A stretch of 64,000 bases of DNA, from contig OY820579.1 in assembly GCA_963681965.1 (NCBI GenBank), forward strand, positions 3,808,001-3,872,000, in the 5' to 3' direction. The stretch comes from a bacterium. Lineage in GTDB: Bacteria; Electryoneota; JAOADG01. The translations under genes were made by a program, and so were the position numbers. The notes under the pieces were generated by a model. That model was not told the origin of the DNA and ran no database searches. It saw nothing but the letters and a program-made list of their open reading frames with translations. Numbering within the stretch: position 1 is the first letter of the stretch; each line of letters opens with the position of its first letter. This document shows positions 21,990 through 33,082 of this stretch, one piece after another.

Positions 21990-22500
21990 TACAGGATGGG
22001 TGGTAGGTGATGGTTCGAGGGTGGTAGGTAAAAGAAGGGTAACGGCGGACTTTAGTCCGCATTATGTTTTCTGCGTAGCTGCAGGCTTCAGCCTGCGATT
22101 TTTTTCTTGATTTTTTTATCCTGCAGTAGGGGCGGGCTCCCACGCCCGCCCGATCATTTTTAGACACAAGAGGAGTCGGAATAGATAGGTATTGTGTGGT
22201 GGGAGAGGATACAAAAAGACACAAGAACGGGCCGGCTCCCACGCCCGCCCGATCATTTTTAGACACAAGAGGAGTCGGAATAAATTCCGACCTACACCAA
22301 TGCAATTGCAGACACAGGAGGTGGTCAGAACAAGTTCTGACCTACGTAAAAGAAAGCGCTCGCAGGCTCGAAGGTTCGTTGTTTTTTTCCGTAGGGGCGT
22401 ATGGCATACGCCCAAAGCGTCAGGCAGCGCCTGACGCCGTCTTTGGTGGCGCAGGCTCGAAGACTTGCGCTCTTTGTAATCGGAGGTTAGACGCAGCCTG
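21990..22500. repeat. REP-like cluster
   Basis: Same hairpin families; 22075-22152 nearly identical to 19161-19237. Confidence 0.85.
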
Positions 22501-22570: not shown

Positions 22571-25246
22571 TTACTTCATGAAGATTACTTTTTCGGTCTT
22601 GACAGTATGACCGGCAGTCATCTTGATAAAGTACACGCCACTCGCCAATCGGTTCGGACGCCAGGTAATACGCTGCTCGCCGGCATTGAACACGTTGTCG
22701 ACCAACGTGCCAACTTCCTTACCGGTGATGTCGTATGCCTTGATCGTTACGCGATCGCGCAACGGAATGGCAAATCGAATCGTGGTGTACGGATTGAACG
22801 GATTCGGATATGCCGGCTTCAACTGATAGGTCGAAACGACACTCTTCGTCGGATTTTCATTCACACCGGCAACGATATTGTAAGTCTGCCAAGTGATATC
22901 GCTCACCGTAGGATCGCGTTGAATCGAAATCCGGAACTTCACGTTAGTAGCATTCAAGTACGATTCATCCCAACGCCACATCATCGTATCGTTGGTAATC
23001 GGCGCTGTATTGATCAGCGACCACTGACCATTCGGATAATTGCGCATGACTTCGATCCGGACGGTGTCGGTCGTACGAATATCGCCATTGGTAGTGGTGT
23101 CGATATAATCCCACTGCAACGTGACGGGATTCGTCAAATATGAATTGGAAGGAAAGACCAATCGAATCGTTGCCAACGATAAATCGCGCGGTGCGTCGTC
23201 GGAAGAAATAATGTCGCTGACATTCGTATTGGCAAGCAGCGTAATCCGGAACCGGACACGCAGCAAGTTGTATTCTTCTTCGAATGCCCACGAGTAAGTC
23301 GTGTCGCTCGCCAATGGCGTGTCGATCAATTCCCACTCGCCGTCGGGATAATCGCGATTCAATTCGAGTTTGACATGGCAAGTATCGGCAATACGACGAT
23401 ACAACCAATTGAAGGTGATCGGGTTATTCAAGTACAAGCCGCCGGCAGGACCGGTAAAGCGCAAAATCGGCGCATTCGGGTCGAACCGATAACTGCAACG
23501 TAACGGCGGATAGTCCGGATACGTCAACGTGGCGGTGCTGTGAATGGCACTGCGTGCCACCGACGTCACGTATACTTGATTTTGCGTCCAGTCGTTCGCA
23601 AGCGGCGAACCGGTCTGCTGACCGTCGATCCATGCCGAACCACCGGAACGATCGTCGATGTACATAATGTAAAGCGAGTCGTTGTCGACCACTTCCGGCA
23701 TTGACGGCCAGATGCGGCTGTGCGCCGAACCGGATGCCGCACCGGCGTTATTCGTCGTGTCGGTAACCGGAGTCGGTTCATACCAGGTGGCACCGTTGTC
23801 GACCGAGTGCGTGACCCAGATATTCGCGCAAGCGTAACCGTTGGCGCTGGTGTCGACTTCGGAATCCTTGTTGCCGTACTGCGAATAGGCACAATACAAT
23901 TCGTTGTTGGTCGCAACCGAAATGCTCATGCGGTCGATCGTCGTGCGATATTCCTGACGCCAGCGTGGCGGCGTACGTCCATCGTATACAATCGGCCACC
24001 ACCAACCGTCGGCGACGATCGAGAAAGTATCGGGAGCGGCACTTGACCAGTGATACATATAAGTCGGCATAAATTCGACGCGCCATACCGGCGGAACGCG
24101 CGGTCGGACAGTCGTGTCGGTGGACAAGTCTTCCAGGAACCGGTTGACGGTGAAGACGATGTGCAAGTTGTCGTTGTTGTCGTAAACCATTGCAGTCGCA
24201 TTGAAGAAGCGGAACGTATCGCCTGCTGCCCAAAGCGTGTCAAGGTTTTCCGACTGCGTGAAGCGATCCCAGTTCCAGACGCGGAATTTCGTGATATTGT
24301 TGTGCAGCGTATCGTCGAAGTTCCATGACGCGCCGCCATCGGTCGACTGCGCAGCCCACAAGTCGTTGTTGTAATCGCTCACGAGGAAGCCGCTCCAGCC
24401 GTGCAAATCTTCGTAACCGCCGGGAATGGCGGTTTGCGGCCATGCGACTGCAACTTTATTGGAAATGCGCGAAGTCGCCATCGCATACGACGGCATGAAG
24501 CAACGGAATGCATAGGAGAATGCGGACGGATTCGATTGATTGGCATCGGTACGGCTGTAATAAATACGGGCGTATTCAATATTTCTGCCACCGTCTTTGT
24601 TGCGTGCGAACATGTGTCCGACATTATTGCGATCCATCGCAACGCTCGGCCAGTTGATCGAGTCGTTGGGAAGTGTCGCGGGATTCGGAATAATTTGAGT
24701 TCGGAAACCGGAAATCTGGTAGTCTTCGTCGACTGCGATCAGCGACATGAATCCGGGAGGGTTGCCGGTCGGTTCGTGTGCACCGATCACGGCGCGACCG
24801 TCGGTCAGTATTTCCTGCTGGCTGAAGCCGGCACCGGCTGCGACTGCAGAACCGGGGATCGACCATGCGCCGTTCGGCGGTTCGCGGAAGTTGTAAGAGA
24901 CCACGCGGTCGGTCGAGCTATTCGGCGTGCGGTGGTTCATCCACGATGTGTGAAGACCGCCCATCGTGTCGCGTTGGATCAGACGGTTGTGGGAACCGTA
25001 TGAGAAAAAGTCGGTATAAGTAGTACCAATTTGCACCGTCGAGTTGACTTCGTCGACTGACCGTACCGGACCAACGGGTGCCGGAGGCAGTGGATGATTC
25101 AACGGAACCGGCGCTGGATCCTGTAATAGTTGGCGCGACATCGACGGAGTACGGGGATCGCTGAGATGCTGTTTCCGTACGCCGAACGCTACTGCAACCA
25201 ATCCCAACACCAACAGCACTAACACTATCTTAGCTGGTATTTTCAT
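22571..25246 (-). CDS. Secreted BNR/Asp-box protein with T9SS CTD, paralog 5
   Basis: 891 aa, closest to paralog 4 (same GAAAGGAGTTATCATG start context); YPNPFN...KVIFMK. Confidence 0.9.
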   Translation of the reverse strand: MKIPAKIVLVLLVLGLVAVAFGVRKQHLSDPRTPSMSRQLLQDPAPVPLNHPLPPAPVGPVRSVDEVNSTVQIGTTYTDFFSYGSHNRLIQRDTMGGLHTSWMNHRTPNSSTDRVVSYNFREPPNGAWSIPGSAVAAGAGFSQQEILTDGRAVIGAHEPTGNPPGFMSLIAVDEDYQISGFRTQIIPNPATLPNDSINWPSVAMDRNNVGHMFARNKDGGRNIEYARIYYSRTDANQSNPSAFSYAFRCFMPSYAMATSRISNKVAVAWPQTAIPGGYEDLHGWSGFLVSDYNNDLWAAQSTDGGASWNFDDTLHNNITKFRVWNWDRFTQSENLDTLWAAGDTFRFFNATAMVYDNNDNLHIVFTVNRFLEDLSTDTTVRPRVPPVWRVEFMPTYMYHWSSAAPDTFSIVADGWWWPIVYDGRTPPRWRQEYRTTIDRMSISVATNNELYCAYSQYGNKDSEVDTSANGYACANIWVTHSVDNGATWYEPTPVTDTTNNAGAASGSAHSRIWPSMPEVVDNDSLYIMYIDDRSGGSAWIDGQQTGSPLANDWTQNQVYVTSVARSAIHSTATLTYPDYPPLRCSYRFDPNAPILRFTGPAGGLYLNNPITFNWLYRRIADTCHVKLELNRDYPDGEWELIDTPLASDTTYSWAFEEEYNLLRVRFRITLLANTNVSDIISSDDAPRDLSLATIRLVFPSNSYLTNPVTLQWDYIDTTTNGDIRTTDTVRIEVMRNYPNGQWSLINTAPITNDTMMWRWDESYLNATNVKFRISIQRDPTVSDITWQTYNIVAGVNENPTKSVVSTYQLKPAYPNPFNPYTTIRFAIPLRDRVTIKAYDITGKEVGTLVDNVFNAGEQRITWRPNRLASGVYFIKMTAGHTVKTEKVIFMK

Positions 25247-25661
25247 GATAACTCCTTTCCGAAGTTACTGAGTAAGCATGTGAGTTACCGCTTTAACAAA
25301 AAAAGTACCAAAATTGTACAGATGTAACAACCCTGTTCAATAGTTAGCAGATAATATATAGAAGAACTTGCGAAATCCCTCATCGAGTGCGATCAAAATT
25401 CGCACGAATTAACAATTAGATAAAAAAACGCCTCGACTCCCTCTAAGGGAGGCGCTCACCTACAGTGATACGGTTGCGACGCCGTTGCAATTGTGATTCT
25501 TGCACATCATTTTTTTCGCTCATTTTTTTGGATCCATCCGACCGGGAAAAGATTAAAAACGATTCAATCGTCTTGCGAAAGTTTCGAGGATTAGCTTAGT
25601 TTATCGAAATAATGCGCTACTGGAGAAAAAATGGAGCCGTTAGTATAATCAATTTCGTGCA

Positions 25662-25892
25662 ATGCAAGGATTTTCTTATCGATTCGAAGTTACCAATCGA
25701 AAACTACTCACCCGTGATTTTGATACAACAACTCCTTGGATAAATCCAATCGACTCTATCACTCTTGCCCGCGTTAATGAAGCCTCTCAAGAACTCAACC
25801 TACCCGAATCCGAGATTCGCGCTCGCTACGAAGCGATCGCCGAGAAAATTCCGATCAAATTGGCGTGGAAACCGGAAACTTGGAATCGATAG
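25662..25892 (+). CDS. Small hypothetical protein
   Basis: 76 aa ATG-started ORF with protein-like composition, converging on the MetE-like gene; no family recognised. Confidence 0.4.
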   Translation: MQGFSYRFEVTNRKLLTRDFDTTTPWINPIDSITLARVNEASQELNLPESEIRARYEAIAEKIPIKLAWKPETWNR

Positions 25893-25898
25893 CGAAAA

Positions 25899-27080
25899 TT
25901 ATTTGGAATATTTATTGCGCAGAATCTTCGCCGCTTCTACTATCTGGCGGAGCTTTGCTGTGGCGGTGGCATCGTCGTTGACACAGCGATTGGAGAAGGT
26001 CCCGAAACCGCAATCGGGATTGAGGAAAATCTTTTCCGGTGGGAAAAATTCCAGCGCGCGTTCGACGCGCTGCACGATCGTAGCGACCGGCTCGATATCG
26101 TAGCCGCGCGGATTCACTACGCCCAGCCCCAATTCGCGACCGCGTAATTCCTGAGCGACTGCCGACAATTCACCCGCCCGCGGCGTGGCAAATTCCAGCA
26201 CAAATTGATCGACATTCATCCGCGCCAGTGCCGGTGCAAGCGGTGCATAATCGCCCGTGAGCAACACCTCGTCGCAACGACTCCAGTTGCCACGGCAAAT
26301 ATGAATCCCCGTACGAATCCCGCTCACCCCGTGTACCACACGGTTGATCAGTTCGACAGCGTAGTCGAGTTCCGCACCCGCGTCCCGGCGGGTCGCCAAC
26401 GTCGCTCACATGAAAGTGCGGCGATCCTTCTCCTTCGAGAGGATGACTTCCGTCAATACCGGTTCGTCGAATTGCACCATCGCACAACCGGCATCGCGCA
26501 GCTCCGTCAATTCGTCGTGCAACATCGCTACGATGTCGTCCGCCATGTCGGTTTTGTCGCGATACGCCGATTTCGAATAAGCGGTCACCCACATCGAGCG
26601 CGTCAACAGATACGGTCCGGGCAATGTCGCCTTCACCGGTAAATCGGTGAGACTCGCAACATACTCGAATTCGCGCACCGCCAACGGTTCGCGCCGCGAC
26701 AGCTTACCGGTACAGGTCGGATTCCGAATCGCCGACGCCGGTACATCCAGCGTCGCCAACATCTCTTCGAATCCGGCTTTGTCCTCGACGGTATCGAGCA
26801 TATCCGCCAGCGACATCAACGCCGCGCCATCCACCCGCTCGGTCAGGAACGAATAGAAATTGTCGCGATGATGTTCGCCATCGACCACCAAATCGACGCC
26901 GGCATCTTCCTGAATCCGAATTGTCCGCGCAATTTCTTCACGCGCAATCTGCTCGAATTCCGGAGTCGCCAGTTTCCCGACGCGACGATCGCGCAACGCG
27001 CGCAACATCTTCTCGGACCGGATCCACGAACCGACTTGTGTCACTGGAAATAGCGGTAGTTTGCGTGTTGCCGTCTTCAT
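25899..27080 (-). CDS. Core (single-domain) cobalamin-independent methionine synthase II / MetE-like Zn enzyme; probable selenoprotein with Sec at codon 225 (393 aa)
   Basis: ORFs 26406-27080 and 25899-26399 are in the same frame, separated only by TGA (RRTFM*ATLA). Motifs TQVGSW.R, QEDAGVDLVVDGE, KATLPGP, QFDEP, IHICRGNW, LEFA and LNPDCGF span both parts. Confidence 0.88.
26376..26393 (-). promoter_or_regulatory. Putative bacterial SECIS element
   Basis: The mRNA reads UGA-GCGACGUUGGCG-ACCCGC-CGGGAC-GCGGGU: a perfect 6-bp stem, a 6-nt loop with G at position 2, and 18 nt between UGA and the loop. Confidence 0.75.
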
Positions 27081-27823
27081 ACCACCACCATCTTCGTTGT
27101 GAGTTCAGTTGCTTTCGCGAGCGTCGTTGCCAATGGTGAGCGCCGCAGTGTATCGTCCCACGCTCCGCGTAAAATTTTCTCGTCCGCGAAACTGGTGACG
27201 TAACACTTCAACTCGATTGCCGCGAACGACGGATCGCCGTCCTCGCTGCCAAGATGCGCCATGACATTGTGCAGTCGTCCGTTGACCGTGATTTCGACAT
27301 CGTCGACTTCCAACTGTCGTCGCGAACAGGCACCGAAGTAACCCGTTGCCAAATCGCCTGCAAGTGCTGACAGTAGGTATTCCACCGCCGACGGATGCGC
27401 ATCGCGTTCTTCGAAACTGGCGGCTTGACCGATGTCGAGCGCGAAGTTGCGAAAGTACGCGCTGCTCTTCTGTCCGCCGGTTGATCGTACCCGTACGCGC
27501 CATTCATAGGCTTTCGCACGTTCGCGATCGGCTGCCAGTTGACACGCTTCCTCCGCGGCGATTTTCGCACCGCGTCGCACGAAGTAACGCATGGTCCGTT
27601 CACCCGGAAGACTTCCAAGGAACTCGTGACCGACCATCCGGCACCACGGCGGTAAATCGTCAGCCACCGTCGATTCGCTGCTGCGCATTTCGAGGATGCC
27701 GTCCACCGGTACGCGAAGCATCGCTTCCCGGATCAACAGCACCAGTCCCGAACCGCAGTCGAGGTCGCCGCCATCGAACAGGTGATCGGCGTTCAAAGTA
27801 CGGAGTGTCGATTCATCCAGCAT
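27077..27823 (-). CDS. TusA/SirA-like sulfur-carrier domain fused to OsmC-like domain
   Basis: FDGGDLDCGSGL...DDLPPWCRMVGH (TusA-like), then PSAVEYLLSALAGDL...RRSPL (OsmC-like); ATGA overlap with the MetE-like gene. Confidence 0.85.
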   Translation of the reverse strand: MLDESTLRTLNADHLFDGGDLDCGSGLVLLIREAMLRVPVDGILEMRSSESTVADDLPPWCRMVGHEFLGSLPGERTMRYFVRRGAKIAAEEACQLAADRERAKAYEWRVRVRSTGGQKSSAYFRNFALDIGQAASFEERDAHPSAVEYLLSALAGDLATGYFGACSRRQLEVDDVEITVNGRLHNVMAHLGSEDGDPSFAAIELKCYVTSFADEKILRGAWDDTLRRSPLATTLAKATELTTKMVVV

Positions 27824-27829
27824 GATGTA

Positions 27830-28195
27830 TTAGTAGCACACGCAGGGCGAACCGTTCGACAGCCATTCGACCAATGCCGCGCCGCCAGCCGGTTGCGCGC
27901 CTGCGATCAGCATATCGTCGGTGATGTTCCGCTTCTTCATACACGGTGTGCAGACATAAATCTTGCCGCCGCCGTTGACGAATTTTTCGATCAATTCGTT
28001 CAAGGGCAGGAACGGAGCACCGGCATTCACTTTCGCCGCTTCCCCTTTGGCAGCTGCCCAGACGCCATCGGCACTCAAAAACACCATCGTGTCTTTTTCG
28101 CTGCCGAGAGCCGCATTCGCAACCACAAAACCGAGGGTTGCCTTGTCTTCGTTGTCGTGGGTATGGGTAATACTCACACAGAAGGTCTTGCTCAT
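27830..28195 (-). CDS. DsrE/DsrF-like sulfur relay protein
   Basis: Start MSKTFCVS via ATGA overlap; VFLSADGV and GGKIYVCTPCMKKR motifs. Confidence 0.88.
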   Translation of the reverse strand: MSKTFCVSITHTHDNEDKATLGFVVANAALGSEKDTMVFLSADGVWAAAKGEAAKVNAGAPFLPLNELIEKFVNGGGKIYVCTPCMKKRNITDDMLIAGAQPAGGAALVEWLSNGSPCVCY

Positions 28196-28443
28196 TCGTT
28201 GTCTCCTGATTCGGATTTCTTTTGAATCAAATAGAATGGGTGTTGCTTGATCAGTAGTGCGTTGCCCGTCGACCAGCACCACGCCGGAATATCGATGCCG
28301 GCTCCGCTGTCGAGTGCGCGTACGCATACTTTCGGCGAACCGGACAGCGTCTTGAAATACGCCAGCAGGTCGCAGATCAGCGTGCTGCAACTCTTGTCGC
28401 CGCCGTCATAGGTAACGTCGTATTGCCAATCGTCGGGGTACAT
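28192..28443 (-). CDS. Small TusA/SirA-like protein
   Basis: MYPDDWQYDVTYDGGDKSC...ALDSGAGIDIPAWCWSTGN, paralogous to the N-domain of 27077-27823. Confidence 0.8.
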   Translation of the reverse strand: MYPDDWQYDVTYDGGDKSCSTLICDLLAYFKTLSGSPKVCVRALDSGAGIDIPAWCWSTGNALLIKQHPFYLIQKKSESGDNE

Positions 28444-28834
28444 CGAAAATTCTCGAAAGAAACAAGAGGATGAATGTAGTGGAGAGAATTGCAAATCGAA
28501 AGTCGAAACATTCTTCTGCAAAAAATATTGTGTAAGGAATAGTCAATACTAAACACGCACTACTACCGTGTGAATTTAATTCCAGCGAATATCACGAATT
28601 CCGTTCGCGAAGCGGGACGCGAGTGTTTATTCCGATCATTTTACCGTCCTCGAACATACCTCTTCGACGCCTGGAGTCGGCTCCAGAAGTGCCGCAGTTC
28701 ATTGTTTCGCGTGCAAATAGTTTTTTGCGCACTGATCCGATGGGCAATAATTCTAAGACCTGTTTGCTGAGATCGATCTCTACTCGCGTATCGATGTCAT
28801 TGCGATTCTAATCGAGGATGTGTGAAAATATTCT

Positions 28835-29926
28835 TTACGACAATCCGAGCACACGCCCGATTTTCCGGAAGCTGACGAATTTGAAGACCCACTGGATCTT
28901 CGCAAATATGCTCCCCTTCATTGTTAGAAAGCGGATGCCCATCAACAGCACCAGAATCACCGTCAACACGAGTCGCACCAAGCCGTTGTGCGACACCGTG
29001 AAGCGCTCGTAATCGAATTTCTTCGGATGACTCACCGGCGGCAATTTGGGATCGCGGAATTTGACCCATGCCGGCAATTTGATTTCCGACTTGTCGTACA
29101 CATTCGGCAGCGGAACGGCGAAATTGAAAAAATTCTGGAATAATTTTTCTTCGTCGATTTTCGGATTGATCTTGCTCGATTGGTCTTTCCAGATCACCAC
29201 CATCAGGTCGGCGCAATCCGGTTCGTATGGTTTGCGCTCCGCCAATTTCGGAATCAGTTTTGCCGCTTCGTCGCGGGAGATCTGCGTTTCATCCATCATG
29301 CCGACGATCTTGCTGGCATTGAGTGTCTCGACATTGCTGCCGAAAATGGCGCGGAAATCGTCGGGATGAAAATAAGTGCGTTCGGCATGACTCTTGTCGA
29401 GATCGCGCAACGACATGCGGCACCAGCGCTCGGTGGTGTAGGGGCTGCATTCCAGCGTCGTGATCACCACCGCCTTGCGGGCGACGCGATATGCTTCCAT
29501 CAGACCTTGTACCGGATCGAACAGGTGCTCGATCACTTCGCTCAAAATCACGATGTCGATACTGTTGTCTTCGAAGGGGAGTCCGTGAATGTCGGCGGGT
29601 AGTGCCGGAATGGAAAACAGCTCGTTGCAGCGCGTGCACGCGTTGTCGGACAATTCGGTCATGATTGAATCGATGCCGAGGAATTTCTTTGCCAGTGCCG
29701 CGATATACCCTTCGCCACCGCCGATATCGACCAGCGTCGAACCATTGATCCGGTTCAACTGCTGGAGAATCGCATAAGCGATCGTCATCCGCATGGTGTG
29801 GTTGCGTTCGGACGGTTGGACACCGAAGCCGTAGATCGGGCGATGCGCCTCATAGCGACCTTCGGCGACACCGCGGTCGTAGCGTTCGTCGAGCCATTTT
29901 TTGGTAACGGTGGTGTATTCGTTCAC
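28835..29926 (-). CDS. Class I SAM-dependent methyltransferase
   Basis: LVDIGGGEG motif I and ADIHGLPFEDNSIDIVILSEVIEHL; C-terminal hydrophobic helix. Confidence 0.87.
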   Translation of the reverse strand: MNEYTTVTKKWLDERYDRGVAEGRYEAHRPIYGFGVQPSERNHTMRMTIAYAILQQLNRINGSTLVDIGGGEGYIAALAKKFLGIDSIMTELSDNACTRCNELFSIPALPADIHGLPFEDNSIDIVILSEVIEHLFDPVQGLMEAYRVARKAVVITTLECSPYTTERWCRMSLRDLDKSHAERTYFHPDDFRAIFGSNVETLNASKIVGMMDETQISRDEAAKLIPKLAERKPYEPDCADLMVVIWKDQSSKINPKIDEEKLFQNFFNFAVPLPNVYDKSEIKLPAWVKFRDPKLPPVSHPKKFDYERFTVSHNGLVRLVLTVILVLLMGIRFLTMKGSIFAKIQWVFKFVSFRKIGRVLGLS

Positions 29927-30124
29927 GGATACTCCCGGTTAGATCAGAAATTCGCTGCCGATCAATCAATCAGTGCAATATATACTAGATCAAAGTATAT
30001 TTCCAGCGATTGCGCGGCGTCAGAATGAGATACGAATAATTTCAAACCGCGCACCATTTTGTTTGTAAACAGACTCTGCCGGTCGTATAATAATTCCGAT
30101 ACCAGCTATCCGACCGGAGCCGCC

Positions 30125-33082
30125 ATGACTTTCCGCCATCGCAGATTTCCACAATCAATGCTCGCTTTTGCGACGACACTCGTTTTCGCTCTGTCGTTTT
30201 TGCTTTCATTACTCCCGCAACGAACATTTGCCGTGTCGGTGCAATCGACACGCCTTCCGCACCCGTTCCAGTTTACCGAGAACAAAGGGCAGTGGGATTC
30301 CGCCGTCCTCTACAAATGCGAGGTGCGCCGCGACGGATTCACCTGGTTCCTTGAGCGCGATGGTGTCACCCTCGTCACGAGTGTAATTGATTCCTCAAAA
30401 ACGATAGACGCCAGTAGGGGCGGCTCCCCGCGGACGCCCGCAAGCGGCAACGACGTTGCCGCCGTAGGGGCGTATGGCATACGCCCTGATCATGAATCCT
30501 TTCCATTAAAATCTCACGCGCTCAAATTTAAATTTGTCGATTCCCGTAGGGGCGAACCACAAAGTGCTCGCCGAAGGCAATCGCATTCGCCCCTATCTGT
30601 TCAAGATGCTCTCACTTGTCGTTGCGAGGAACGCAGCGAAGGATCGTCCGCCGCAGGCGGAAAGCCGCAGCGAAGTGACGAAGCAACCTACTCTTTAAAT
30701 GAATCAAAGACACAGGAGGAGATTACCTTCGGTGAGCCCTTCGGGGTTGCTTCGTCATTCCACTTCGGAAGTGCTTCGCACGTTCCTTCGTTCATTCCTC
30801 GCAAATACAAAATCAGGATTCAAGATACAAGATTAGGGCGAATGCGATTCGCCCCTACAGAAAAATATTCGACACAAGAGGAAGTCGGAATAAATTCCGA
30901 CCTACCCTTCGCGCAAGCGAAGTGGATCGACACACAAGGCGAACTTTCGTGGCACAATAATTATTTTCTCGGGAATGATTCGTCGAAATGGGCATCGGAT
31001 TGTCGCAACTTTACCCGCGTGGTATATCATGATGTCTGGGAGGGTATCGATGTTGAGTGGTATGAGAGCAAGGGACATCTCGAATTCGATTTCGTCGTGC
31101 ATCCCGGTGCCGATCCCAAGCAAATCAAGATGGTATGCGAAGGGTTGGAAGGAGATATTCTTTTCCGTAGGTCAGGTTTTAACCTGACCTCTTTAAACAC
31201 AAACTCTCAAATGGTCAGAATAAATTCTGACCTACAGTTACAAGATGAACTTTCGCTTCCCACTTCCCTCGGTGAACTACGGATGTCGATTCCGGGCGCA
31301 TACCAAACCACTGCAAATGGCGCTCGTGGAAACGCTGTCACGGCACAATTCACAATCGTGGCAGAAAATCTCTTCGCGATCGATATGCCAAATGGGTATG
31401 ATCCAACCCTAACGCTCCGAATCGATCCGCTGGTGTATAGCACATACATTGGCAGCTCTGGCAGCGACGATATTCGTGGTATTATCGTTAACAACGATAA
31501 TACTTGTATCGCTACGGGAATTATTATGGGAGATCCCCAAAATTTCCCAGTAACAGCCGGCGCTTTCGATACTACTCTGAATGGAAGCGACGATTGTTAT
31601 GTCTTGAAACTGAACAGCAATGGGACGCGAATTGTCTTTTGCACAATCATCGGCGGTAATAGTATTGATAATTCATGGGGAATTTCCAGTGATGGAAACA
31701 ATGGTGCTATTATCACAGGTGTAACTTATAGTTCGAATTTTCCGTCGACAAATGGAATTCGGTTGTGGGGTGGGAGTGATTTCTTTCTTACTCGAATTAA
31801 TAATACCGGCTCTCGATTGATTTATAGCACATTCTTCGGTGGATCTGATTGGGATTATGCATATGGATTAATGGCAGATGGAACTGGAGGAGCGATTGTG
31901 TGTGGTTTAACATCTAGTGTCGATTTTCCGATAATTAATGAGGGCTTTGATACAAGTTACAACGGTAATTGCGATGGTTTTATAACCCAAATCAATAGTA
32001 GTGCAACCGATTTTACTGTCAGTACTTATATCGGAGGTTCCTCTTATGATGGTATATATTCAATTTTTCGCGACGATCATTCAATAATTGTCACTGGAGA
32101 AACCAGTAGTAATGATTACCCAGTCACATCCTCGGCATTTGATACTTCGTACAATCGGATTAGCAATGATACGATGGATTGTTTCGTTTCGCGCTTCGAT
32201 CTTGCCGGTGATCATTTACTAGCGAGTAGTTTTTTAGGTGGAAATGGAAATGATATCGGTTACAGTGTAATTAGCGATCATAATGGCAATCCATTCGTAG
32301 CAGGATTCACAACAAGTCCTAGCTTTCCGGTTACGTCAGGTGCTATGGATACTTCCTATAGCGATTTTTCGGGTTTTATTACAAAATTCGATACAACTTT
32401 ACATGCTTTAGAATTTAGCACTTTTTTATGTGGCGCAGGAGGTACTTCGATAGTGAATGACCAACGTGATGGGCTGTTTATAACTGGTGGTGCAGTTTCG
32501 TCATTTGTCACCACAGAGGGAAGTTTCCAACCAAATTATAATGGTGGTATCAGGGATTGCTTCATCGCACATCTTGACTCGACTGGTAGCAGAATGATAT
32601 ATACTTCATTCTTAGGTGGTTCTTCTACCGATGGTGGTACATCAATTGCTTATCTTGGAAATGGTAATCTCGTTATCGGGGGACTAACGAGTAGCAACAA
32701 CTTTCCAGTTTCAAGCAGTGCATTCGATACTAGTTATAATGGAGGCACTAGAGATGCTTTTATTTCCTATTTACATTTCGATACGCTAGAAGTATTACCC
32801 ATTTCCAATATCCTTCCGTCTTATTATCGTCTAGAGCAAAATTACCCGAATCCCTTCAACTCCACCACCTCACTCTCCTACACTCTCCCAATCTCATCTC
32901 ACGTTGATCTTCGTCTCTACGACCTGATGGGGCGCGAAGTTACTACGCTGGTGCAACGCGAACAAATTGCCGGAACCTATCGCGTGTTGCTCGATGGTTC
33001 GCACTTGGCGAGTGGAACCTATTTCGTGCGATTGCAAGCGGGTGCGTTTTCGAAAACTCAGAAGATTGTGCTGTTGAAATAA
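30125..33082 (+). CDS. Secreted SBBP-repeat beta-propeller protein with T9SS CTD, carrying three in-frame REP-like insertions
   Basis: GGAG RBS plus signal peptide; FTENKGQW, NYFLGND..KW, IDPLVYSTYIG, repeated G.T.S..FPVT..AFDTSYNG; NYPNPFN...KIVLLK. Confidence 0.88.
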   Translation: MTFRHRRFPQSMLAFATTLVFALSFLLSLLPQRTFAVSVQSTRLPHPFQFTENKGQWDSAVLYKCEVRRDGFTWFLERDGVTLVTSVIDSSKTIDASRGGSPRTPASGNDVAAVGAYGIRPDHESFPLKSHALKFKFVDSRRGEPQSARRRQSHSPLSVQDALTCRCEERSEGSSAAGGKPQRSDEATYSLNESKTQEEITFGEPFGVASSFHFGSASHVPSFIPRKYKIRIQDTRLGRMRFAPTEKYSTQEEVGINSDLPFAQAKWIDTQGELSWHNNYFLGNDSSKWASDCRNFTRVVYHDVWEGIDVEWYESKGHLEFDFVVHPGADPKQIKMVCEGLEGDILFRRSGFNLTSLNTNSQMVRINSDLQLQDELSLPTSLGELRMSIPGAYQTTANGARGNAVTAQFTIVAENLFAIDMPNGYDPTLTLRIDPLVYSTYIGSSGSDDIRGIIVNNDNTCIATGIIMGDPQNFPVTAGAFDTTLNGSDDCYVLKLNSNGTRIVFCTIIGGNSIDNSWGISSDGNNGAIITGVTYSSNFPSTNGIRLWGGSDFFLTRINNTGSRLIYSTFFGGSDWDYAYGLMADGTGGAIVCGLTSSVDFPIINEGFDTSYNGNCDGFITQINSSATDFTVSTYIGGSSYDGIYSIFRDDHSIIVTGETSSNDYPVTSSAFDTSYNRISNDTMDCFVSRFDLAGDHLLASSFLGGNGNDIGYSVISDHNGNPFVAGFTTSPSFPVTSGAMDTSYSDFSGFITKFDTTLHALEFSTFLCGAGGTSIVNDQRDGLFITGGAVSSFVTTEGSFQPNYNGGIRDCFIAHLDSTGSRMIYTSFLGGSSTDGGTSIAYLGNGNLVIGGLTSSNNFPVSSSAFDTSYNGGTRDAFISYLHFDTLEVLPISNILPSYYRLEQNYPNPFNSTTSLSYTLPISSHVDLRLYDLMGREVTTLVQREQIAGTYRVLLDGSHLASGTYFVRLQAGAFSKTQKIVLLK
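30414..30486. repeat. Intragenic REP-like insertion 1
   Basis: GTAGGGGCGGCTCCCCGCGGACGCCC and GTAGGGGCGTATGGCATACGCCC. Confidence 0.8.
30546..30905. repeat. Intragenic REP-like insertion 2 (360 bp from GTAG to CTAC)
   Basis: Modules match intergenic repeats at 13140-13300 and 63605-64000; ends GTCGGAATAAATTCCGACCTAC. Confidence 0.88.
31167..31235. repeat. Intragenic inverted REP pair (REPIN-like, 69 bp)
   Basis: GTAGGTCAGGTTTTAACCTGACC ... GGTCAGAATAAATTCTGACCTAC. Confidence 0.85.

Follow-up and report, generated by a model that had tools for sequence, protein, structure and literature searches.

What reaction does an enzyme of the MetE fold carry out when it is encoded at the end of a row of putative sulfur carriers, and is its gene, which holds an in-frame TGA, intact at all? 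Both questions are raised by four genes on the minus strand of contig OY820579.1 (assembly GCA_963681965.1, a bacterium of the Electryoneota lineage). They lie within a stretch of 64,000 nucleotides (nt), positions 3,808,001 to 3,872,000 of the contig, which is hereafter called the window and to which the coordinates below refer. The genes follow each other head to tail in the order TusA-like (28443..28192, 83 amino acids (aa)), DsrE-like (28195..27830, 121 aa), TusA-like::OsmC fusion (27823..27077, 248 aa) and MetE-like (27080..25899, 393 codons with a single in-frame TGA, corresponding to the MetE catalytic domain). The tight coupling of these genes had been claimed in a first-pass annotation made from the letters of this DNA, and all of it was confirmed in the sequence: the TusA-like and DsrE-like genes share an ATGA overlap, 6 nt separate the DsrE-like gene from the fusion, and a second ATGA overlap joins the fusion to the enzyme gene. 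Their wider distribution was studied in a set of related loci obtained by scanning one genome per species, of which the best 80 among at least 586 confirmed relatives (600 pattern matches) were kept. Most of these 80 loci, which come from many phyla, show the genes in this order and on one strand, far more than chance would give, and the four genes very probably form one functional unit.

The in-frame TGA of the MetE-like gene

The TGA (26408..26406, minus strand) falls on residue 225 of the read-through protein, in the motif RRTFM-U-ATLA, where U stands for selenocysteine (Sec). Full-length relatives of 377-405 aa, 57-64% identical to the read-through protein, span 93-100% of it, and the TGA column is an invariant Cys in 17 of the 17 full-length homologues that were aligned (motif RTFM-C-A). 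Among the 80 related loci, the codon of this column is TGA in 72 and TGC or TGT in eight, and the frame is intact downstream. The TGA forms share a hairpin, ACCCGC-CGKGAY-GCGGGU, located 12-13 nt after the TGA, whose stem is fixed at synonymous positions and whose loop wobbles. In the window, this element, which resembles a selenocysteine insertion sequence (SECIS), reads ACCCGC-CGGGAC-GCGGGU (26376..26393, minus strand) and its bases also encode T-R-R-D-A-G. The eight Cys forms encode different residues at the hairpin site and have no hairpin. The consensus computed by RNAalifold from the window and 28 of the 72 TGA loci (29 sequences) is a stem of 5 bp, in which one compensatory change (C-G to A-U), three changes of G-C to G-U and a few breaks are seen.

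The genome to which the window belongs is a single contig of 4.24 Mb that is 99.9% complete. It encodes SelB (363.6 bits), SelA (481.4 bits), SelD (336.7 bits) and tRNA-Sec (63.8 bits), all of them above the curated cut-offs. The Cys in all aligned homologues, the TGA in most loci, the restriction of the hairpin to the TGA forms and the presence of SelA, SelB, SelD and tRNA-Sec in the genome bear out the selenocysteine reading of the first-pass annotation: the MetE-like protein is almost certainly a genuine selenoprotein in which the TGA is read as Sec225. The SelD gene of this genome (C1:4177383-4178309, locus L010), which lies outside the window, also holds one in-frame TGA, and SelD itself is therefore probably a Sec-containing protein.

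The gene might otherwise be regarded as broken: the TGA would then be a genuine stop or result from a sequencing error, and the two open reading frames (ORFs) of 224 and 166 aa would represent a pseudogene or a split gene. Gene callers do split the sequence at this point, and the 224-aa N-terminal piece has 4564 matches in the protein database, of which the 120 listed are all stubs of 215-250 aa, named "methionine synthase II", "Cobalamin-independent synthase, catalytic domain" or "hypothetical". Yet a TGA found at the same column in so many loci and phyla, followed by a conserved hairpin and an intact frame, leaves this explanation with hardly any credibility, and the comparative data effectively refute it. 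In two public runs, among which may be the source of the window, contigs span this whole stretch with 0 differences, and this identity as well as the full Sec machinery of the genome also speak against a broken gene; the contigs of two further runs leave positions 26270-26363 uncovered.

A core MetE-type enzyme

The read-through protein matches the Pfam family Meth_synt_2 (PF01717) over residues 11-385 (134.3 bits against a cut-off of 21, E = 7.5e-39), and its gene is the sole member of this family in the genome. The match to the folate-side family Meth_synt_1 (PF08267) covers a short stretch and stays below the threshold (25.7 bits against 27), so that the 393-aa enzyme is, as had been claimed from the sequence, devoid of the N-terminal folate-binding half. 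The AlphaFold2 model (predicted local distance difference test score, pLDDT, 84.6; predicted template modelling score, pTM, 0.89) has the C-terminal domain of T. maritima MetE as its top Foldseek match (TMq 0.76, ~23% identity), and a search of the ESM Atlas returned same-family clusters only. Longer forms were sought with a natural Cys homologue as the query; this gave three matches, none with a TusA domain, fusions of ~470 aa lying outside the length band of the search.

Individual residues were compared through a profile (hidden Markov model, HMM) alignment to N. crassa MetE (4ztx). The positions of the zinc ligands, H260, C262, E296 and C357, are invariant and align with the HfC, siE and npdCG motifs of 4ztx, and those of the homocysteine binders, S18, E69 and D205, are equally invariant and align with the GSfP, hGE and vDEP motifs of MetE. 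A conserved folate-stacking Trp of MetE was also considered, a claim that was dropped because the HMM alignment shifts this Trp by two positions. The roles of the zinc ligands of MetE and of the Ser, Glu and Asp that bind homocysteine by its carboxyl and amino groups are given in the accessible part of PMC7857596. Because both sets of residues are conserved, the protein can be classified by its sequence as a core-MetE-type thiol/selenol alkyltransferase, and a reaction of the methionine-synthase type on homocysteine or selenohomocysteine is possible.

Two features set this family apart. The RRTFM-U/C-ATLA segment is a family-specific insertion relative to MetE, placed straight after the DEP strand, and C123 is a second family-specific and invariant Cys. 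In the structural model, the loop that holds residue 225 (215-233) has no secondary structure (block pLDDT 54-59) and runs between strand 5 and helix 5, beside the strand that bears His260 and Cys262. As a Sec/Cys pair occupies an invariant position that is specific to the family, Sec225 is probably catalytic and may act as the nucleophile.

One may ask whether the protein is simply an ordinary folate-independent core methionine synthase, that is, a fifth Mes-type family in which residue 225 and C123 have structural or zinc-tuning roles and the carriers are accessory, helping the enzyme as MesX helps MesD, for instance through the supply or regeneration of the methyl donor. The invariant zinc ligands and Ser/Glu/Asp binders are the very criteria used for MesA-D in the accessible text of PMC7857596, and a single domain of ~390 aa is also what core synthases have. 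The first-pass annotation had argued against a standard methionine synthase from the absence of the N-terminal half, an argument that does not hold, since MesA-D also do without that half according to the same part of PMC7857596. The distribution of MetH can be accommodated as well. The genome of the window encodes a full-length MetH (1064 bits), so that the MetE-like enzyme need not be the housekeeping methionine synthase. Among the genomes of 50 of the 80 loci, MetH is above the cut-off in 25 and at least partially matched in 48; these are incomplete metagenome-assembled genomes and split MetH forms exist, so the absence of MetH cannot be inferred from these counts. It follows from this survey that the cassette is usually not the sole route to methionine. 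Nevertheless, co-occurrence with MetH is usual for MesD/MesX too, in 75% of cases as reported in the available text of PMC7857596, and the presence of MetH in half of the surveyed cassette genomes and in that of the window is thus also what a core synthase would show.

Other observations fit a fifth Mes-type family less well. None of the NCBIfam methionine-synthase equivalogs is reached, the best being NF003317 with 185.3 bits against 406; TIGR01371 scores 127.1 against 929.95. An invariant and family-specific Sec/Cys pair usually marks a catalytic residue and not a structural one. Moreover, TusA and DsrE proteins are not known to be methyl carriers. MesX (PF08908) was not found in the 99.9% complete genome, by a search that matched no control genome and whose sensitivity is therefore unproven. 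An ordinary core synthase seems, on these grounds, unlikely.

The carriers and their link with the selenocysteine form

The DsrE-like protein reaches the Pfam family DsrE (PF02635) with 60.5 bits against a cut-off of 22.7, and its nearest solved chain is 3mc3 (E = 3e-4). Two cysteine motifs had been highlighted in this protein by the first-pass annotation, CTPC and a C-terminal CVCY, and they fared differently in the comparison. The former (C82-x-x-C85, in YVCTPC) is kept as a CxxC in 65 of 65 homologues, whereas the latter (in PCVCY) exists in the window protein but is not conserved, as a C-terminal Cys is found at position 118 in 38 of the 65 homologues and at position 120 in a minority. C82 is a candidate for the reactive Cys found at position 78 of DsrE/TusD.

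The TusA-like domains are more divergent, and both do carry the DGGDxxC...PxWC pattern that was noticed from the start in place of CPxP: YDGGDKSC and IPAWC in the small protein, FDGGDLDC and PPWC in the fusion. Their scores for the Pfam family TusA (PF01206), 18.1 bits for the higher of the two and 15.8 bits for the small protein, are below the cut-off of 28.6. A profile built from 34 TusA-OsmC proteins finds E. coli TusA over its full length (E = 9e-5), and places C23 of the fusion on Cys19 of TusA, the cysteine of LRCPEP, and C61 on its Cys56. Both cysteines are present in 64 of 64 homologues of the fusion. Likewise, C19 and C56 of the small protein are present in 59 of 59 homologues, C19 lying in DGGDxxC at the place of the TusA CPxP cysteine and C56 in IPAWC. 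The CPxP motif surrounds the persulfide cysteine of TusA; here it is replaced by C-G-S-G in the fusion and by C-S-T-L in the small protein. Given the profile match to E. coli TusA and the correspondence of the two cysteines, both domains can be considered TusA-like in predicted fold and in cysteine placement, without the CPxP signature.

The second half of the fusion, which is single-copy in the genome of the window, reaches the Pfam family OsmC (PF02566; 35.7 bits against a cut-off of 27.5). The two OsmC cysteines, C166 and C207, are both present in the window protein, but among 73 relatives C166 is kept in no more than 55 and C207 in no more than 45. Since they are not conserved, a peroxidase role for this domain is unlikely and one in docking or binding is more plausible. 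In a side observation on the related loci, the DsrE gene of L071 and the TusA-OsmC gene of L098 were seen to contain one internal stop each, not aligned with any cysteine, which may be sequencing errors or decay.

To assess the distribution of the carriers, the 80 loci were searched by tblastn with the four proteins, and the linkage was counted in the loci with at least 1600 nt upstream of the enzyme gene (62 Sec and 7 Cys forms). In the 62 Sec loci, the TusA-OsmC fusion is found in 57, DsrE in 56, the small TusA in 56 and all three in 55, and one locus has an OsmC-only protein. None of the three carriers is found in any of the 7 Cys loci, six of which have an OsmC-only protein. L092 was left out of the count owing to the motif window of the script, and carries all three carriers by tblastn. 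The conservation of the neighbourhood, on which the first-pass annotation had made its proposal depend, is therefore extensive, with the TusA-DsrE-TusA-OsmC-enzyme set in 55 of 62 Sec loci, and the taxa concerned, as labelled in the records, include Acidobacteriota, Calditrichia, Bacteroidota, Armatimonadota, Desulfobacterota, Planctomycetota, Eisenbacteria, Krumholzibacteriia, Gemmatimonadota, Fibrobacteraceae and others. Variations exist: a few loci have the small TusA on the downstream side of the enzyme, the carriers of L036 are ~3.7 kb upstream, and the exceptions among the Sec forms are L056, L069, L088, L089 and L095. The carriers thus accompany the Sec form specifically, being almost always next to it and never next to the Cys form.

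This pairing does not simply reflect the capability to use Sec, since SelA is present in 7 of the 8 genomes with a Cys form (above the cut-off in six, split at contig ends in one). Each of these eight genomes has exactly one relative of TusA-OsmC, which corresponds to the OsmC part alone; the fusion was found in none of the eight. In a FastTree phylogeny of 98 sequences, which was midpoint-rooted, with stops treated as X and the topology taken without branch support, the Cys forms occupy at least two places among the Sec forms. This suggests a repeated change from Sec to Cys together with the loss of the carriers.

The Cys forms have partners of their own, as they are usually preceded by genes for an OsmC-only protein, an acyl-CoA-dehydrogenase-like protein and a protein that resembles substrate-binding proteins (SBPs) and is signal-less. 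In the OsmC-only partners, both OsmC catalytic cysteines are absent. The best NCBIfam model for the acyl-CoA-dehydrogenase-like protein is the Rv1679 family (361 bits, below its cut-off of 600), the SfnB and desulfinase models scoring lower, and the SBP-like protein scores 211 bits with the Rv1680 family (below 400) and has a Pfam Phosphonate-bd match. A literature search found nothing on Rv1679, Rv1680 or Rv1681. In L091, both accessory sets stand in a row before a Sec enzyme, and in L056 a Sec enzyme is accompanied by the Cys-type set. As OsmC is found in the Sec cassettes and in the Cys-type sets, including those of L091 and L056, an OsmC-like domain appears from these sequences to be the universal partner of the enzyme family in both its Sec and its Cys forms.

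No other protein family consistently accompanies the Sec enzyme: an all-against-all clustering of the ORFs from the 80 loci and the window recovered no conserved Sec-locus family beyond the three carriers. The gene selD is directly upstream of the cassette in 2 of the 80 loci (L024:1556-2506 and L037:1478-2464), and in the genome of L094, a Cys form, the OsmC-only partner (G055, C215:2679-3095) comes right after selA (1033-2397) on the same contig. These neighbours could indicate a selenium-salvage module, in which the enzyme dealkylates organoselenium amino acids such as selenomethionine or Se-methylselenocysteine and the carriers pass perselenide toward SelD. Zinc methyltransferases of the same superfamily have indeed been proposed to demethylate methyl-selenium in Sec-using anaerobes, according to the consulted portion of PMC10418091. 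Yet the adjacency of selD is rare and comes from related taxa, of Bacteroidota type, most genomes with a Cys form also use Sec and nonetheless have no carriers, and sequence does not tell selenium from sulfur substrates. Salvage of this kind is accordingly very unlikely to be the function of the cassette.

What, then, may the carriers bring to the enzyme? Our best guess is that Sec225 and the carrier relay may pass sulfane sulfur, selenium or redox equivalents between them. Zinc would hold a thiol or selenol amino acid resembling homocysteine, and the enzyme would perform an alkyl- or sulfur-transfer step, with Sec225, on a mobile active-site loop, as the catalytic nucleophile. The loop would swing between the zinc site and the partner. 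Sulfane sulfur or selenium could pass from the small TusA to DsrE, then to TusA-OsmC and finally to Sec225 or, alternatively, Sec225 could hand a selenenyl-sulfide back to the relay; C123 might be the resolving thiol, and the OsmC domain would serve as a docking module and not as a peroxidase. That the relay loads Sec225 with sulfane sulfur or selenium, or takes a selenenyl-sulfide back from it, the zinc-bound thiol or selenol being the other reactant, is a tentative reading to which we give a little less than an even chance, and a direct action of the relay on Sec225 is about as open to doubt. The reading draws its support from the nature of the partners, which are of persulfide-carrying kinds (the Cys19 position of TusA, DsrE), several of them with Sec versions listed in the available part of PMC13188914. 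A more specific version of it, in which the co-substrate of the MetE-fold enzyme is a persulfide or perselenide bound to protein and brought by TusA, DsrE and TusA-OsmC onto the Sec of the loop, is somewhat unlikely.

The same cysteines could serve an enzyme that (de)alkylates its substrate reductively, much as glycine reductase does, and whose carriers would move reducing equivalents and not sulfur. In that case, Sec225 would take the alkyl group or sulfur from the zinc-bound substrate, C123 would resolve it to a selenenyl-sulfide and the dithiol carriers would re-reduce the enzyme. The CxxC kept in every DsrE homologue and the two invariant Cys of each TusA domain are typical of dithiol/disulfide exchange, the enzyme itself has an invariant second Cys in C123, and the Cys forms replace the carriers by a flavoprotein-like acyl-CoA dehydrogenase homologue, possibly another electron source. 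Nevertheless, the 80 loci share no conserved gene that could bring in reductant, such as one for thioredoxin reductase or ferredoxin, C23 of the fusion matches the persulfide-carrying Cys19 of TusA, and the closeness of C123 to residue 225 is an assumption. A reductive function of this type is, for these reasons, quite improbable.

Returning to the exchange of sulfur or selenium between Sec225 and the relay, a number of points weigh against it. Some concern the Sec codon: taken by itself, the window hairpin does not exceed shuffled sequences in stability (z = 0.06), so that its support is comparative, and its covariation is slight, with a single compensatory pair. Others concern the link with the carriers. 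The genomes of two of the five Sec exceptions encode the full trio away from the enzyme, and the trio may thus also serve other clients, while no carrier trio was found in the incomplete genomes of L088, L089 and L095. The link between Sec and the carriers could reflect lifestyle (anaerobe versus aerobe) instead of mechanism, and the phylogeny is subject to the treatment described above. Finally, the vicinity of the Sec loop to the zinc site and to C123 is deduced from the barrel topology of a model in which this loop has low confidence, and we infer both the contact between carriers and enzyme and the delivery of a sulfur or selenium species.

Surroundings, known relatives and significance

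A weak sigma-70-like promoter match (TTCACA-17-TAGTAT, 9/12 positions) lies at 28546..28574 (minus strand), ~100 nt upstream of the first gene; it is a consensus match only, in a region with 4 sites against 1.9 +/- 1.4 in shuffled sequences. A Rfam search of positions 25000-29500 with E up to 10 gave two chance-level matches only, and ARAGORN found no tRNA within the window. On the same strand, ~390 nt upstream of the cassette, a gene (28835..29926) encodes a 363-aa class I S-adenosylmethionine (SAM)-dependent methyltransferase (Methyltransf_11, E = 2.4e-13), which is not conserved beside the cassette in the 80 related loci. Near the cassette of six of these loci (L026, L038, L042, L054, L057 and L095) there is an ArsM-like methyltransferase of ~205 aa, whose best NCBIfam models are arsenite-methyltransferase selenoprotein fusions, all below the cut-off. 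Past the 3' end of the operon, a 76-aa ORF on the plus strand (25662-25892) scores 28.3 bits with the Pfam model wHTH-HSP90_Na-assoc (cut-off 23). Further along, in the intergenic region beyond the 3' end of an 891-aa gene (22571..25246), a 62-nt direct repeat occurs twice at 22125-22285 (94% identical, 99 nt spacing). On the other side of the operon, several imperfect inverted repeats of GTAGGGGCG...CGCCCCTAC-like units are found at 30464-30863, in the 5' part of a 1007-aa ORF (30059..33082); the real start of this ORF is probably further downstream, which would make the repeats small intergenic elements.

The closest known system is the C-terminal catalytic domain of MetE (PDB 1T7L, 1XDJ, 4ZTX), with which the enzyme shares the fold, the His-x-Cys/Glu/Cys zinc site and the Ser/Glu/Asp contacts. 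In contrast to MetE, it has half the size, no Meth_synt_1, ~23% identity, the insertion with Sec/Cys225 and the extra Cys123. Like MesA-MesD (PDB 3RPD), it is a single catalytic domain, within their range of ~340-390 aa, with the zinc and homocysteine residues, and it shares with MesD/MesX the co-encoded partner protein or proteins and the coexistence with MetH, as far as the available text of PMC7857596 describes them. It differs from MesA-D in that their equivalogs are far off, its partners are TusA, DsrE and OsmC and not DUF1852/MesX or corrinoid proteins, and Sec is present; the text of PMC7857596 makes no mention of TusA, DsrE, OsmC or selenocysteine.

The carriers resemble the TusA/DsrE relays (TusBCD, DsrEFH) by the Cys19 and Cys56 positions, the match to the DsrE family of Pfam and the presence of several carriers in a row. 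Unlike in these relays, CPxP is replaced, the TusA threshold of Pfam is not reached, DsrE has a CxxC and one TusA is fused to OsmC. The acceptors of the known relays are tRNA thiolation or DsrC, whereas the acceptor proposed here is a MetE-fold enzyme. Among known selenoproteins, the table of PMC13188914, in the part available, includes DsrE-like (UxxC), OsmC-like (UxxT) and rhodanese-like families. In these, as in the present family, Sec pairs with Cys at the position of a conserved reactive cysteine and the UGA is closely followed by a hairpin of the bacterial type, but here the DsrE and OsmC proteins use Cys and it is the MetE-fold enzyme that carries Sec. The MtaA-like zinc methyltransferases of type 1 mlp clusters also belong to the UroD/MetE superfamily, perform zinc-dependent methyl transfer to a thiol or selenol and co-occur strongly with the Sec machinery in anaerobes, according to the sections of PMC10418091 that were available. 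Those enzymes depend, however, on corrinoid proteins, form another family and are not reported there as selenoproteins, and no TusA, DsrE or OsmC partners appear in the same sections.

Neither MetE, methionine synthase nor homocysteine occurs in the accessible portions of PMC13188914 (2026), PMC9312934 (2022), PMC1976440 and a 2022 preprint on selenoprotein families, and PF01717 is absent from the accessible text of the selenoprotein review PMC13188914. A wider search of the literature, with subscription papers and supplements outside its scope, returned nothing relevant that links MetE or methionine synthase with selenoproteins, SECIS elements or TusA and DsrE. Thus, no selenoprotein review, paper or NCBIfam model that describes this family was found.

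The family would add to the selenoprotein lists that we found a widespread member in the MetE fold, which they do not contain. It also exposes a systematic annotation error, since the Sec forms appear in the protein database, among the matches listed, as stubs. The contrast between a Sec form with TusA, DsrE and TusA-OsmC and a Cys form with acyl-CoA-dehydrogenase-like, SBP-like and OsmC proteins offers a testable handle on the role of Sec versus Cys and on the second substrate of partner-dependent core MetE enzymes, a question shared with MesD/MesX, and the gene set is small enough for heterologous expression. Should the carriers indeed deliver a persulfide or perselenide to Sec225, the cassette would represent a new class of reaction, for example one that depends on persulfide to form or methylate an amino acid of the homocysteine type or, alternatively, one that releases selenium from organoselenium amino acids. 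In that case, it would constitute a new and widespread anaerobic route in sulfur/selenium amino-acid metabolism, of which the Cys form, with a flavoprotein and an SBP-like protein in place of the carriers, would be the oxygen-tolerant version.

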